Source: Dictyostelium discoideum
Lineage: Eukaryota
Length of the DNA stretch: 64,000 bases
Reading direction: 5' to 3'
NCBI GenBank assembly: GCA_000004695.1
Contig: CM000153.2
Span: 576,001 to 640,000, forward strand
The notes under the pieces are model-generated. The model was not told where the DNA came from and did no database searches. It worked only from the letters and a program-made list of their open reading frames with translations. The stretch's first letter is position 1, and each line of letters starts with the position of its first letter. Positions 8,589 through 33,695 of this stretch are shown here, piece after piece. A program made the position numbers and the translations under genes.

Positions 8589-9348
8589 ATTTATAAACAA
8601 TAACTAATTAATTAATTTATAATTTAAAGAACAAAAACAACCAGAATTAGATAAATTAGAAAATTTATTATCAACGATTGAAGGTAATTTATCAAGTTTA
8701 AATTTAGAATCAAATCGAACAGGTAAATCGACACAACAATATTTTACACAATTTTATGGGGCAAAGAGAACCTATCAACAATTTAGAGATAAATATCAAG
8801 ATGAAAAGAATTATGCAGATTTAATACCTTCACAATATCACGATTTTAATACAACAGGATCACAAAATCAACGTGATCGTGTAGTTAGAGGCAATAAAAC
8901 ATTAGAGAATGGCATTCAAATGATTAGAATGGCAAACGATCAAGTTAGAGAGGATAAGAAAACAGCAGAATCCACATTGGAACAATTGGCAACTCAAAAA
9001 GAGCGTTTAATAGGTTTCGAAAAGAAATTCGATTCAATCGATGGTTATTTAGATAAAGCAAAGAAAACAATTGGTCAAATGTCAAGAAGGGCAATGGCAA
9101 ATAAATTCATTATGGCTGGTATAATTTTCATCTTATTAATTGCAATTGGTTTAATCATTTGGTTGAAATTCGTTAGAACTGGTGATTCAAATAATAATAG
9201 TAGTAGTAGTAGTAGTTTTGAAACTACTACCACTACCTCCACCACTGGTACTACTTCAACAACTTCTTCTACTTCCACTACTACTGGTACTACTACTTCA
9301 GATCCTGCAACTGGTTCATCAACTACTACCAGTGATACAAAAATATAA
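8359..9348 (+). CDS. Vti1-like Qb-SNARE (N-terminal Vti1 helical domain, SNARE motif, C-terminal TM); join(8359..8361,8453..8540,8630..9348)
   Basis: ATG is immediately followed by a GTAAGT intron (8362..8452, acceptor GTTTAG). Exon 2 ends at GTATGC (intron 8541..8629, acceptor TTTAAAG). The spliced protein begins MSLFESYEEEIKVSFKQFEQI..., like the Vti1 N-terminus. The C-terminus LEQLATQKERLIGFEKKFDSIDGYLDKAKKTIGQMSRRAMANKFIMAGIIFILLIAIGLIIW is a Qb-SNARE heptad motif plus TM helix, followed by a Thr/Ser-rich luminal tail. Confidence 0.65.
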
Positions 9349-27789: not shown

Positions 27790-27964
27790 TTAAATATGTG
27801 CTTTTGCTCTAGCTCTAATGGATCTAGCCAAAACATCTAACCAACCATAAGTATTTAAAATATTTGAAACATAATTATGATCTGTATAATTTTGGTTAGT
27901 TTTTATATTATTTGTTATAAAATCTTTTTTTGAATTTGATCCGACACCTTTTATTGATTGTATT
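27790..27964 (-). CDS. 3' terminal fragment of an unknown gene (...IQSIKGVGSNSKKDFITNNIKTNQNYTDHNYVSNILNTYGWLDVLARSIRARAKAHI*) interrupted by the assembly gap. A candidate ATG lies at 28073-28071 on the far side of the gap
   Basis: Coding-like open frame runs directly into the N run. Across the gap the minus strand reads AAAAAATGTGGGTT|NNN, a typical A-rich start context. Confidence 0.3.
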
Positions 27965-28064
27965 NNNNNNNNNNNNNNNNNNNNNNNNNNNNNNNNNNNN
28001 NNNNNNNNNNNNNNNNNNNNNNNNNNNNNNNNNNNNNNNNNNNNNNNNNNNNNNNNNNNNNNNN
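27965..28064. other. Assembly gap (100 N)
   Basis: Run of exactly 100 N characters. Confidence 0.99.
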
Positions 28065-28070
28065 AACCCA

Positions 28071-28120
<50 letters not shown>

Positions 28121-28273
28121 GATATTAAAAAAAAAATAAAAAAGAAATATAAGTTCATTCTCGTTGGAAACTGTTGTTGGAAAAAAATAATGAAATAATC
28201 AAAGAAAAAAGGGGTTTATAAATAATAATAATTTTTATCATTTGATTCATTAATGATTAAATTAAATTATTTT

Positions 28274-28322
<49 letters not shown>

Positions 28323-28600: not shown

Positions 28601-29067
28601 TAAAAATAGAGAGTGGGGTCATGTTGTTGGAAATTAATTTTTTTAGTATAGACATCCAATAAATTAAATTATTAAAGATATAAAACAATGGTATTTTTTG
28701 GATTTTATTAATCTTTAAATAAATTATAAATATAAATAATTATTTTAGATAAGAATATTTTAATACTATTTTTTTTTTTCTTTTTAATTTTAAAAAATTG
28801 GAACCATTATAGTTCAATTTTAATTAATCAAAATGTTGGTAACTATCCATTTATTTATTTTTTATATTTATATATCCATTAAATAAAATATAAATGAAAA
28901 ATTTTGAAAACATTTTAAAACAATTTTTTTTTTTTTTTTTTTTATTTAAAAAATAAAATAATTTTATTTAATTGTAATGGTACTATGCTTTTTATTATTA
29001 AATATAATCAATTATAAATATTTGAAAATAAAATTCAAAATAATTTAAAATTAATTATTAATTTTTT

Positions 29068-29358
29068 TTAAAGGCTAATGTCAGCATCAACATGAACAGA
29101 TAATAATGGAGCAAGGTTTAAATCAATGCATGCAGCAACATCTAAAAGTTGATTAGAGTTTGAACCAAATTGTGATGAGCTTATTGTGTTTTTTAATTGA
29201 CTCTTTTGGGAAACTGATTTAATGGAGCTGATTGATTGTAATGATTCTATATAATTTAAAATAAATAATAATAAAAAAGGAATTAGAATGGATCTAAATC
29301 TCACAAATTGAATTATTATTTTTGGGGAAATATTTTGATGATAATTACTAAATAACAT
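29068..29358 (-). CDS. Small Ser-rich protein, tandem paralog 1 (~61 aa, MLFKSLQSISSIKSVSQKSQLKNTISSSQFGSNSNQLLDVAACIDLNLAPLLSVHVDADISL); complement(join(29068..29246,29349..29358))
   Basis: 10-nt first exon ATGTTATTTA, donor GTAATT, 102-bp AT-rich intron, acceptor TTATATAG. The same exon 1 and acceptor context are conserved in the paralog ~970 bp downstream. Confidence 0.45.
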   Translation of the reverse strand: MLFSNYHQNISPKIIIQFVRFRSILIPFLLLFILNYIESLQSISSIKSVSQKSQLKNTISSSQFGSNSNQLLDVAACIDLNLAPLLSVHVDADISL

Positions 29359-29462
29359 TTTGGAATTTTATGTTTATTTTTTTTTAAAAAAAAAAAAGGT
29401 AATGATACAAAAATATGTTTATTTGATTTGAAATAAAAAAAGAGTTTCTTTTTTGGTTTTTA

Positions 29463-29503
<41 letters not shown>

Positions 29504-29666
29504 GGAATTAATTAGAAAAAAAAATATAAAAAATAAAATTTAATATTTATTACAAAATTCATTAGATCTTTTTTATTAAAATAAAATAATACCTATTTTT
29601 GTAAAAAATTTATTATTTATAAAAAAAAACTGATCTATTAAAAATTTATATTATACAAATGGTGTA

Positions 29667-29706
<40 letters not shown>

Positions 29707-30033
29707 ATAAATTTAAATTTTATACAAATTACCAAATAAAGAAACAACCTATTTTATAATTTTGTGGTTTTCAAAATAAATTTAGATCCCAATTCTATTT
29801 TTAGAACCACCACTAAAAAAAAAAAAAAATAAAAAAAAATAAAAAAAAAAATAAAACATATAAAAATAATTAAAAAAATAAAAAGGTGTTAACGGAATAA
29901 TTAATTTATGTATCAATTAATTAATTTTTATAGTAACGATATTATAATGTATTAAAATTTTTTAAAAAATAAATAATTATTTTTATTTATGCACACAATT
30001 GTAATGATACTGATTTATATGATTTTTTTTCCT

Positions 30034-30316
30034 TTAAAGGCTAATGAAAGCATCAATATGAGCAGATAATAATGGAGCAAGATTTAAATCAATGCATGCA
30101 GCAACGGCTAATAGTTGATTAGAATTTGAACCAAATTGAGTTGAATTAATTGTGTTTGTTAATTGACTCTTTTGGGAAACTGATTTAACAGAACTGATTG
30201 ATTGTAATGATTCTATATAATTTAAAATAAAATAAAATTAAAAAAAGAATTAATAAAGGATTAATTTTAAAATAAAAATTAAAATTTTAAAAAAAAACAT
30301 ATTTACTGAATAACAT
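30034..30316 (-). CDS. Small Ser-rich protein, tandem paralog 2 (~61 aa, MLFKSLQSISSVKSVSQKSQLTNTINSTQFGSNSNQLLAVAACIDLNLAPLLSAHIDAFISL); complement(join(30034..30212,30307..30316))
   Basis: Exon 2 is ~88% identical to paralog 1. Read without splicing, the frame has an in-frame TAA and no ATG, so the 10-nt exon 1 (ATGTTATTCA|GTAAAT) plus a 94-bp intron is required. Same phase-1 junction as paralog 1. Confidence 0.45.
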
Positions 30317-30732
30317 TTTTAGTTTTTAAAGTAATGATACAAAAAAAGATATTTAGGATTGAAAAATAAAAAAAAAAAATCTTTCTTTTTATAGCAAAAA
30401 AAATTATTATTTTAAAAATTTAAGTTATTGGGTTTTAATAGCTTTTTAAATTTAAAACAATAATTTTAATTTTGTTTAGATTCAATAGATTGATTATAAT
30501 TTAAAATTACTTTTTTGTAAAAAAAGTTAAAATATTGTTTGGATTGATTAAAAAAAAAAAAAAAAAATTAAAAAACAAATAAAAATAATAATGGTAATTA
30601 ATATGTATTTTATGGGTTAATTTAAATTAAATTAATTAATCTGTACTATTTTTCAAAAATAGGTTAAAAAAAATAAAAATACATTTTTTTATTTACAAAA
30701 TATAAAATTATTGGAAAAAACAATTAGATAAC

Positions 30733-30776
<44 letters not shown>

Positions 30777-30938: not shown

Positions 30939-32048
30939 TTAAGCTATAATTGAATAAAATTTATTTTTAGAAGAGAAAATGATTCGATTTTTTGAAATTA
31001 TTTGAGCAGATTGTAAAGGTTCATTCGACATCATACTATTTACATTTAATACCTTTGAAAATTCTACAGAATCGTTATCGTTACCACAATCATTATTATT
31101 ATTTTGATTATTTTGATTATTAATATTATTACCGCTATTAAAGAGTGAAATGGTTCCTTCAGAAGACCATGTTATCATTTGTTGAGAAGATTGATTTCTA
31201 TGAATACCTAATAAATCTTTATTATGAGATTGAAATGAATTTAAACAGGTTGAACTATACATATTCCAAACTTTAAATTTACAATCTTTTGATGAGCCTG
31301 TTAATATTATTGGATCTCTAACAGCATGTGGCGATCTAAATAAAACTGAATCAACACCTATACTACCACCACTGCTGGAAGATGGTGGTGAATGAGTTAA
31401 TGTACGAAAACAATGAGAATTTCTAATATCCCATAATTTGACTTTACCATCTGAATCACCAGAAATCATTAATGGTTGATGAGATTGTGAATCAATTGAC
31501 AAGATACCAACTCCACCATTATCCATTTTTGAGATTGGGTAAAGTGATTTCTCAAGATCCCAAATTTGAATTGAAGAATCTTTAAATGAACTTGTAATTA
31601 CATGAGTACCATTCCAAGTGATATCTTTAATCGTATGTCGTTGTTCATCACATTTAATAACTTTAATTGGTAATAGTGTTGTTGGGCTATTAGCACTACC
31701 ACTAAAATCTGTCTTTTTCAATTCAAATAATGATATATTATTATTTGACATTGCAACAACTAAAAATACCTTTTCATTTATAATTTGATATTTCATACAA
31801 ACTACTGATTGTTCCATTTGTAATGTACTTGTTAATGATTCATTATCTAAACTAAAATATTTAACAATATTACTATCTTGATATGATACTAAAAATGAAT
31901 TTTGTTCTGAAATATGATTTAAACTTTTAATTATTAAATTATCATTTAAATTATTCGTATTATTATTTTTATTATTTATATTATTATTATTATTATTATA
32001 ATTATTATTTGATAAAAATGATTTTTTGGTGAAAGATGATTTAAAAAA

Positions 32049-32093
<45 letters not shown>

Positions 32094-33695
32094 TACATTA
32101 TCACTAACATTATTATATATACAATTTTTAGTTTCAACTTGCATTGATAAAGAATAATCATTTATATCTTGTGCATAGTAACCATTTTTTGAAGAATTTT
32201 TATTTGATTTTATTTGATTATTTATATTACTTTCTCTTAAATTATTATTTGATTCTGATGATTTGGTTAAATTATTGTCACTACTACTGCTACTGCCACT
32301 GCTAGTGCTAGTGCTACCACTACTGGTATTATTTGATGAACAATTTAAATTTAAATTTAAAAATAATGGATCAGATTCAATTTGATTTAAAATTTGCAAA
32401 ATCTCTTTAAATGAAGGTCTTAGTGATGGTGTAATATTCCAACATTTTGAGATTAATTCAACCCAATAAGGTGGGAAACCATTTAATGGTAATCTATAAT
32501 CTTCAACCGAAGCTAAAAATGCCAATCTTAAAGGTTCCATACCATTATATGGGTCACGACAAGTTACAATCTCCCAAAGAATGATTGCAAATGAGTAGAC
32601 GTCAACTTTTTCAGTGTAATTCTCTGCTTTGAAGCATTCTGGTGCCATCCAAGCCAAAGATCCCATGGCAGCGGTCATTTCGGTTGGACCTGGTTTCATC
32701 TCTTTCGATAGGCCGAAATCATTGATTTTGGCAACGGTGTAACTACTATTTAGAAGGATATTACTACTTGTTAAATCTCTGTGAACTATCGGACCCTCTT
32801 TAAAATTTGTATGTAAATAATTCATACCCTCTGCTATATCTCTTGCAATGGATAATTGAAGTGATGGTGGTAAATGGTAGCTTGACTTCTCGTCCAAGAG
32901 TCTTCTTAAACTGCCGCCTTCCATATACTCCATAATGATCGACCTGTCATTTGATGGGCCATCGAGTGAACATGCTCCTATAAACATCACACATGTAGGA
33001 TGGCATAGTTTGCTCATTATCGATACCTCCTTATCGAAAATCTCAGTCTCTGTTAAATCTCTAAACTTTATCAATGTTATCTTTTTCAAAGCAACACTTT
33101 TACCCCTCCACCTCGCCTTATAAACTTTACCAAAGAAACCTTGACCTATCTCTTTCTCCACTGTTAATTCTCTCGATGGGATTTCATGCTTCTTTAATGT
33201 TGATTTCAATTTAACCAATTGCTTAAAGTTGATTTTATTCTCTCCATTATTTAAAAATGATGAATTTAAACTACTACCACCTCTACTAAATATTTGATTA
33301 ATTTTATCATTAAAACTATTTGATGTAATTAATGTTGGTGATGTTGATGAAATATCTTCATTACCACCACCACCACCACCACCATTATTATTATTATAAA
33401 AATCATCACTGTCATCTACTATAATTTGTGTTGGTGCAAGATCAGAATCTGAATCTAAATCAGACTCCTTTTCTTCTTCAGTACTAGCAATTTCATCGTC
33501 ATCATCATCATCGTCATCATCATATTCAACATCTTCACTTTTATCATTGTTTCTATTACTACCACTACCAAAACTTTCAACTAATGAAGATGAATTTATA
33601 TAATTACCCATATCAATCGATGTTTTTATATTTATTTTATTATTTTCATTGTTTTCATTTCCTTGATTGTTATCATCTTTATCGTTATTAAACAT
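30939..33695 (-). CDS. TKL-group serine/threonine protein kinase with C-terminal WD40 repeats (918 aa)
   Basis: Single ORF from ATG at 33695. Kinase subdomains are present ([40 protein letters not shown]). WD40-like blades follow ([49 protein letters not shown]). N-terminal acidic and poly-Asp tract. Confidence 0.7.

Follow-up and report, generated by a model that had tools for sequence, protein, structure and literature searches.

Two similar sequences on the minus strand of a 64,000-nucleotide (nt) stretch of Dictyostelium discoideum DNA (GenBank assembly GCA_000004695.1, contig CM000153.2, positions 576,001 to 640,000 of the forward strand; hereafter the window, with coordinates counted from its first letter) raise two questions. 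Do they encode proteins by way of a first coding exon of only 10 nt, and are these proteins relatives of the hssA/2C/7E (sigN) family of small proteins? Both had been proposed from the letters alone (the original prediction). Reading and in silico splicing of 28800-30600 placed the two copies, as proposed, at 29358..29068 (copy 1) and 30316..30034 (copy 2). We regard it as very probable that two paralogous protein-coding genes lie in tandem at this locus on AX4 chromosome 4, with a third, divergent 62-amino-acid (62-aa) paralogue downstream; the spliced 62-aa products would act in prestalk cells.

A 10-nt coding exon in two tandem genes

The two gene models consist of the following parts.

29349..29358, minus strand: copy 1, coding part of exon 1 (ATGTTATTTA, 10 nt)
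29247..29348, minus strand: copy 1, intron (phase 1, GT-AG, 102 nt, 18% G+C, in frame and stop-free)
29068..29246, minus strand: copy 1, coding sequence of exon 2 with the TAA stop (179 nt; spliced product Q54R60 / XP_639031.2)
30307..30316, minus strand: copy 2, coding part of exon 1 (ATGTTATTCA, i.e. Met-Leu-Phe and the first base of Lys4; matches the published sigN176)
30213..30306, minus strand: copy 2, intron (phase 1, GT-AG, 94 nt, 6% G+C)
30034..30212, minus strand: copy 2, coding sequence of exon 2 with the TAA stop (179 nt; spliced product Q54R59, 'Protein sigN176')

When spliced, each copy gives a coding sequence of 189 nt and a protein of 62 aa, i.e. a small protein as proposed, although not of about 61 aa. 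The spliced products equal annotated proteins residue for residue. That of copy 1 is 100% identical over its full length to AX4 DDB_G0283493 (EAL65731.2, XP_639031.2, Q54R60; 62 aa), and that of copy 2 is 100% identical over its full length to AX4 DDB_G0283395, or sigN176 (XP_639032.1, Q54R59; 62 aa), which carries the UniRef name 'Protein sigN176'. We therefore rejected the two copies as new genes, since the AX4 annotation has both of them and a 2008 paper lists one. A tiny first exon of this kind had been called easy to miss in annotation, but here it was not missed: the 10-nt exon is in the AX4 annotation as well as in the literature, and both 62-aa proteins were already annotated. The core finding is thus already known, and the gene model is correct with nothing new in it; what the locus does show is that a two-exon model with a 10-nt coding exon could be recovered correctly from raw sequence without tools. 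The accession of the copy 1 protein stands at version 2 (XP_639031.2), which might reflect an earlier, different gene model.

The published exon table agrees with this model. Vicente, Galardi-Castilla, Escalante and Sastre (2008, BMC Microbiol 8:1; PMC2257962) described 96 sigN-related genes, 89 of which have an exon-1 open reading frame (ORF) of 13 nt. The sigN176 row of their Additional file 1 gives DDB0185480, chromosome 4, exons '1 - 10 // 2 - 178', an intron of 93, 62 aa and 17% identity to sigN1. The values of 178 and 93 differ from our 179 and 94 because lengths of introns and second exons were obtained in the table by subtracting start from end (the 257-nt exon of sigN1 is entered as 256). 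Copy 1 (DDB_G0283493) is absent from this 96-gene list. Other short family members, such as sigN172, sigN173, sigN181 and sigN183, measure 63-64 and 56 aa, and sigN183 likewise has an exon 1 of 10 nt. The names DDB_G0283395, DDB_G0283493 and sigN176 had no match in full-text papers, and were found in supplementary tables only.

The sequence itself leaves copy 2 no other way to be a coding gene. As proposed, its exon-2 frame has no ATG and is closed by an upstream stop, and the unspliced ATG frame runs into a TAA after 9 codons, so that the splice is needed. In copy 1 the 102-nt intron is in frame and stop-free, and an unspliced 96-aa ATG ORF (29358..29068) is therefore also present. Exon 1 has the consensus ATGTTATTYA in both copies; the donor is GTAATTAT in copy 1 and GTAAATAT in copy 2, and the acceptor is TTATATAG/AATCATTACAATCAATCAG in both (the slash marks the splice junction here and below). 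The pattern ATGTTATTYAGTAA occurs at only these two sites in the 64 kb. Conservation between the copies is sharply limited to the TATA box, a block in the 5' untranslated region (UTR), the segment from the ATG through exon 1 to the donor, ~20 nt at the 3' end of the intron, and exon 2; indels are abundant in the intron interior and in the flanks. Judged from these comparisons, the splice pattern is more than would be expected by chance. Exon 2 (30-32% G+C) also stands out from the introns (6-18%) in a window whose G+C content is 14-34%. The second exons are identical at 161 of 179 positions (89.9%, high as proposed and slightly above the proposed 88%), and the proteins are 87% identical. An ungapped repeat core of 217 nt (29062-29278 and 30028-30244; 89% identity) is spaced by 966 bp, and the starts lie 958 bp apart; the tandem arrangement stands, with a spacing somewhat shorter than the proposed 970 bp.

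To this can be added the corresponding locus of Dictyostelium firmibasis (L001), where four tandem 62-aa genes lie between a kinase/WD40 gene and a PRK/CYTH gene. Genes 1-3 (L001 6001-6260, 6907-7172 and 7876-8138) are orthologues of the pair with 73-76% protein identity; each has exon 1 ATGTTATTYA followed by the donor GTAAATAT, an acceptor ATAG/AATCATTACAATCAAT, an intron of 71, 77 or 74 nt, respectively, and a product of 62 aa. In the alignment of the five genes, the invariant parts are TATAAAA, TTTGTATCAYTAC, AAAATGTTATTYAGTAAWTAT, the last intron bases and exon 2; the intron interiors and UTRs are unalignable with many indels, and exon 2 has none. The splice model is backed by this contrast, since exon 1, donor and acceptor, already common to the two D. 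discoideum copies, are kept across species while the introns (102, 94, 71, 77 and 74 nt) defy alignment. The spliced frame is the only one with an unbroken ORF of 62 codons in each of the copies, and reading through the intron is possible in copy 1 only.

The protein in this spliced frame is under moderate purifying selection. Nei-Gojobori ratios of non-synonymous to synonymous rates (dN/dS) are 0.22-0.43 in all 10 pairs; between copy 1 and copy 2, 10 changes fall on the 41 synonymous sites and 9 on the 145 non-synonymous ones (Fisher p = 0.002), and differences between the species fall on codon positions 1/2/3 in the numbers 59/39/106. We note that D. firmibasis has three sigN176-type copies and D. 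discoideum two. Paralogues within a species are 89-93% identical in nucleotides, as compared to 80-85% for orthologues between the species, which suggests that, once the species had separated, each duplicated its genes independently or gene conversion took place.

According to published RNA-seq tables, which are our evidence on expression, both genes are in the 'UP_Hr14_rapid' list (24th column of sheet filter_UP; Rosengarten et al. 2015, PMC4403905 suppl. 7), and therefore both are transcribed and are co-induced at the finger/slug transition. The same list includes the hssA-related genes G0281191, G0281013 and G0277741 and the 57-59-aa prestalk genes G0283501-G0283517 (PMC4403905), the latter described by Galardi-Castilla et al. 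2013. For DDB_G0283493, Kin et al. 2018 (PMC6198379 suppl. 5) give values of 0, 0, 3.4, 1.3, 542, 327 and 327 over 0-24 h of development (542 is the value at 16 h). In the same supplement this gene has 410 in prestalk and 26 in prespore cells (about 16-fold prestalk enrichment), and 1.5, 24.6, 2.1 and 0 in cup, spore, stalk and vegetative cells, respectively. Developmental induction with prestalk enrichment, a sigN/hssA trait, is thus seen here, with the prestalk figure for copy 1 only; no cell-type values for sigN176 were found in the published tables.

Relation to the hssA/2C/7E and sigN families

The N-terminal half of the two proteins is Ser/Gln-rich and resembles hssA/sigN; the other half, towards the C-terminus, is acidic and hydrophobic and contains a single conserved Cys. 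Segments of the predicted products are SLQSISSIK, SLQSISSVK and NTISSSQFGSNSNQLLDVAACIDLNLAPLLSVHVDADISL. Six genuine proteins of Pfam family PF05710 ('Coiled'; HssA/B-like 49, 50 and 52 and relatives) were collected by a word search, for which a family-like sequence served as seed, and then aligned. In a profile-profile comparison with hhalign, residues 2-35 of the pair matched positions 3-35 of this alignment (42% identity over 33 columns, E = 8.7e-4), and the match to the Pfam profile has the identical register (residues 2-35 to positions 3-35). With the full hidden Markov model (HMM), only 0-6 of 2000 composition-matched shuffles of the N-terminal 35 residues reached the real score. When 1692 six-frame fragments of the window were scored with the hssA/B-like HMM, the two top ranks went to the exon-2 ORFs of the pair. 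The N-terminal module, MTLFSSISSIS...SSKSS...FGSGTSMGSNSI, is recognisable beyond composition, if weakly.

The gene architecture points in the same direction. A D. firmibasis hssA-like gene (L002) has exon 1 ATGACTCTTTTTT/GTAAGA, which encodes Met-Thr-Leu-Phe and one further base, and the alignment register puts the phase-1 intron of the pair after the same Leu-Phe codons as in this bona fide hssA-like gene. The pair shares the two-exon layout with a micro first exon, which measures 10 nt and lacks the Thr codon, where the norm of hssA/sigN genes is 13 nt (PMC2257962, PMC6198379). Because the aligned Leu-Phe and the phase-1 intron coincide, the 10-nt exon can be read as the 13-nt exon minus its Thr codon. 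The proposed N-terminal likeness to hssA/2C/7E thus stands in kind (residues 2-35, codon and phase of the intron), but it falls below the Pfam threshold and the body of the family is absent.

As for hssA/2C/7E, what is shared includes the module M-(T)-L-F-x-S-[IL]-x-S-I-S ... S-x-K-S ... [FM]-G-S-N-S, the phase-1 intron directly after the Phe codon, and genes of about 200 nt with high late expression; in the pair, however, Thr2 is missing, and the Gly/Cys-rich C-terminal two-thirds are replaced by LL(D/A)VAACIDLNLAPLLS(V/A)H(V/I)DA. The sigN genes resemble the pair as two-exon micro-genes for proteins of less than 120 aa that occur in tandem clusters and are induced in development. They differ in the 13-nt exon, in a length of 87-89 aa (62 aa in the pair), in a Ser/Gly/Cys-rich body that the pair lacks, and in their time of induction (10-12 h, as compared to 14-16 h for the pair). 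The 'four-cysteine knot' of SigN1 is absent from the pair, and the 17% identity of sigN176 to SigN1 is near the bottom of the authors' table. Copy 2 is on the sigN list (as sigN176) and copy 1 is not.

Several results weigh against membership in the family. Against PF05710, copy 1 scores 14.1 bits (E = 0.089) and copy 2 scores 13.6 bits (E = 0.12), and neither reaches the gathering threshold of 21.4 bits, so by the Pfam criterion the pair is not a PF05710 member. With hhalign the probability is only 23%. Nothing in hssA proteins corresponds to the C-terminal half; residues 36-62, in which Gly is absent and Cys occurs once, show no alignment to the hssA/B-like profile. A profile HMM of four sigN176-type proteins, searched against 1.8 billion representatives, returned the query's own cluster only, and word-indexed searches with a single protein and with the alignment returned the same five proteins only, from D. 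discoideum, D. cf. discoideum and D. firmibasis.

These results would fit a pair that is an independent, lineage-specific orphan family, with an hssA likeness that merely reflects Ser-rich composition and the short first exons common in Dictyostelium. The low identity to SigN1 agrees with this, as does a narrow N-terminal HMM, which gives a weaker likeness and scores 186 of 2000 shuffles above copy 1. Against it stand the full-HMM result, the shared register and the position at which that register places the intron, and the two-exon micro-gene architecture and the 14-h induction list are in common with hssA genes; we consider an orphan origin unlikely, if worth keeping in mind. We infer instead that the pair is an outlying, lineage-restricted branch of the hssA/2C/7E (sigN) family, which would have kept the 5' module and the architecture. 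The sigN176 sub-family, marked by a 10-nt exon, a length of 62 aa and the lack of a Gly/Cys body, and limited in this analysis to D. discoideum, D. cf. discoideum and D. firmibasis, would then be a case in which the hssA-like 5' module (promoter, micro-exon, intron position and the first ~10-35 codons) was kept and the body was replaced. The window yielded no further gene of the hssA or sigN type and no candidate with a 13-nt exon.

Transcription unit, peptide and transcript

Upstream and downstream of the coding parts, we were able to identify the following elements.

30386..30393, minus strand: copy 2, putative TATA box TATAAAAA followed by an oligo-T run (invariant TATAAAA block of the five-gene alignment)
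29457..29464, minus strand: copy 1, putative TATA box TATAAAAA followed by an oligo-T run (same alignment)
30331..30340, minus strand: copy 2, motif GTATCATTAC in the 5' UTR/initiator region, 14 nt upstream of the ATG
29399..29408, minus strand: copy 1, 5' UTR motif GTATCATTAC, 40 nt upstream of the ATG (repeat family D12)
29982..30010, minus strand: copy 2, 3' UTR motif GTATCATTAC(AAT) at 30010..30001 and AATAAA at 29987..29982
28963..28983, minus strand: copy 1, 3' UTR motif variant GTACCATTAC(AAT) at 28983..28974 and AATAAA at 28968..28963

The TATA box is a likely promoter element from its position and conservation, and AATAAA a candidate poly(A) signal. The 5' UTR of copy 1 has an additional stretch of ~26 nt relative to copy 2. 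The motif, with the consensus GTAWCATTAC(AAT), is present at both UTRs, 5' and 3', of all sigN176-type genes of the three genomes, namely AX4, D. cf. discoideum and D. firmibasis (genes 1-3). GTAWCATTAC has three exact matches in the window as compared to 0.33 expected, all within this locus, and its core recurs as ATCATTACAAT where exon 2 begins, in every copy; the third gene of the cluster (described below) and one hssA-like gene lack the motif.

Put together, the transcription unit would run from the TATA box and the oligo-T run through a short 5' UTR with GTATCATTAC to AAAATG and 10 coding bases, continuing with a phase-1 GT-AG intron of ~100 nt, extremely A+T-rich, and the 179-nt exon 2. 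Splicing would join Met-Leu-Phe-(A/AA = Lys) to the remainder and yield a 62-residue polar protein. The proteins would act in prestalk cells of the slug and the culminant, possibly redundantly with other small prestalk proteins; the proteins of the pair are probably redundant. That these are small prestalk-enriched proteins made from a spliced two-exon mRNA is a reading in which we have high confidence as regards the gene model and its regulation, and low confidence as regards the biochemical role. Among relatives, the sigN Group 1/2 products have been proposed to be extracellular/adhesion proteins, with a disaggregation phenotype induced by antibody; deletion of 13 of these genes gave no phenotype, and only the antibody effect hinted at roles in adhesion or matrix. 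The idea of a secreted cysteine knot transfers poorly to the pair, because neither protein has a hydrophobic N-terminus and each has one Cys and no Gly/Cys body.

In the hssA/sigN family, with ~100 members, activity of RNA versus protein is at issue, and a number of observations weigh against the main reading. A frame-shifted hssA construct was reported to be active, which pointed to the RNA (PMC6198379). AlphaFold2, given a four-sequence alignment, produced an all-helix filler with a predicted local distance difference test score (pLDDT) of 50.7 and a predicted template modelling score (pTM) of 0.21, i.e. no confident fold. Neither protein is mentioned in the parts of the 2026 life-cycle proteome supplements that were available to us. 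In a sibling strain, D. cf. discoideum (GCA_054859205.1, locus L003 8100..8160 and 9095..9135), both orthologues of the pair carry frame-breaking insertions at codons 16-17 (one of +TT that creates CAT TAA, the other of +1 that turns TTTCCC into TTACCCC), and the adjacent kinase/WD40 ORF (2.8 kb, 933 aa) is intact with in-frame differences only. Coding capacity may be dispensable, or may have been lost, in this lineage; as the frameshifts come from a single assembly, they are either real pseudogenisation or a local assembly error.

The transcripts rather than the 62-aa peptides might accordingly be what functions, as was argued for hssA, with the GTAWCATTAC elements of the UTRs and ATCATTACAAT as the active parts, and the conservation of the UTR motif between species at both gene ends would be in line with this. 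We think this quite improbable, given that changes are concentrated at third codon positions (dN/dS 0.2-0.4), that the number of codons is exactly 62 in each copy of AX4 and D. firmibasis, even in the divergent third and fourth genes, that exon 2 is free of the indels so numerous in the non-coding parts, and that a scan of the whole window at Rfam gathering thresholds gave 0 matches. A shade less probable still is a mixed role, in which sigN176-type genes work at least partly via RNA or via GTAWCATTAC(AAT) as a shared cis-element. If true, the hssA/sigN 'small-protein' family would include members with active transcripts. Returning to the protein-coding reading, translation of copy 1 as the unspliced 96-aa ORF 29358..29068, with the 10-nt exon model for copy 2 only, is highly improbable: its 102-nt intron is a stop-free multiple of three, but it has 18% G+C as compared to 32% in exon 2 and the same canonical GTAA...TATAG ends as copy 2 around an unconserved interior, the introns of the other genes either break the frame by their length (94, 71, 77 and 74 nt) or contain stops, the D. 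cf. discoideum orthologue, when read unspliced, meets a TAA after 14 codons, and the current annotation (XP_639031.2) is the 62-aa spliced product.

A 107-aa D. cf. discoideum protein, ACTFIY_004777 (P0001), was considered as a longer homologue and rejected, as it is a fused mis-prediction that spans both frame-shifted orthologues.

Third cluster member and surroundings

Downstream of the pair the cluster has a third member, which is interrupted by a gap in the AX4 assembly.

27790..27964, minus strand: third member, a 62-aa paralogue (175 nt at the 3' end of its exon 2)
27965..28064, no strand: 100-N assembly gap, covering exon 1, the intron and the first exon-2 bases of the third member

It was found by tblastn with D. 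firmibasis gene 4 (RB653_001572, P0012; L001 9183..9517), which matched 27790..27964 with 72% identity (E = 1.7e-24) and of which it is the orthologue. The third member starts with MLFKS(I/L)QSI as in the pair, and its C-terminal end is ...GWLDVLARSIRARAKAHI directly before the stop. From about residue 10 on, the third and fourth members are unrelated to the pair according to BLASTP, and they have a basic tail, GWLD(I/V)LA(K/R)SIRA(K/R)xKAHI. The AX4 third member and RB653_001572 share with the pair the cluster, the strand, the 10-nt exon 1, the donor, the acceptor, MLFKSLQSI and the 62 codons; unlike the pair, they have no GTAWCATTAC motif in the UTRs and a longer intron (146 to ~174 nt). In D. 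cf. discoideum, where the region is ungapped (L003 10672..11035), the third gene is complete, with ATGCTATTCA/GTAAATAT, an intron of ~174 nt, ATAG/AATCAATACAATCAAT and 62 aa. An exact look-up of three candidate AX4 products of the third gene, including an ORF that reads through the gap, found none of them in the protein collection. The AX4 reference gap hides the 5' end of this gene, which can be reconstructed from D. cf. discoideum.

A homopolymer run abuts the 100-N gap and may be the cause of it. Runs of A or T of 30-55 nt are found in the spacers of the cluster (28066..28125, 28270..28320, 29466..29500, 29660..29700 and 30736..30775). A scan of the window for sigma-70 promoters and intrinsic terminators, a model unsuited to a eukaryote, gave fewer matches than shuffled sequences. 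Directly upstream of the pair, on the minus strand, is a gene for a kinase with C-terminal WD40 repeats (30939..33695, a single ORF of 918 aa); D. firmibasis and D. cf. discoideum have it at the syntenic position, and the proteins differ there mainly through in-frame changes in the length of Asn, Ser, Gly and Asp homopolymer tracts.

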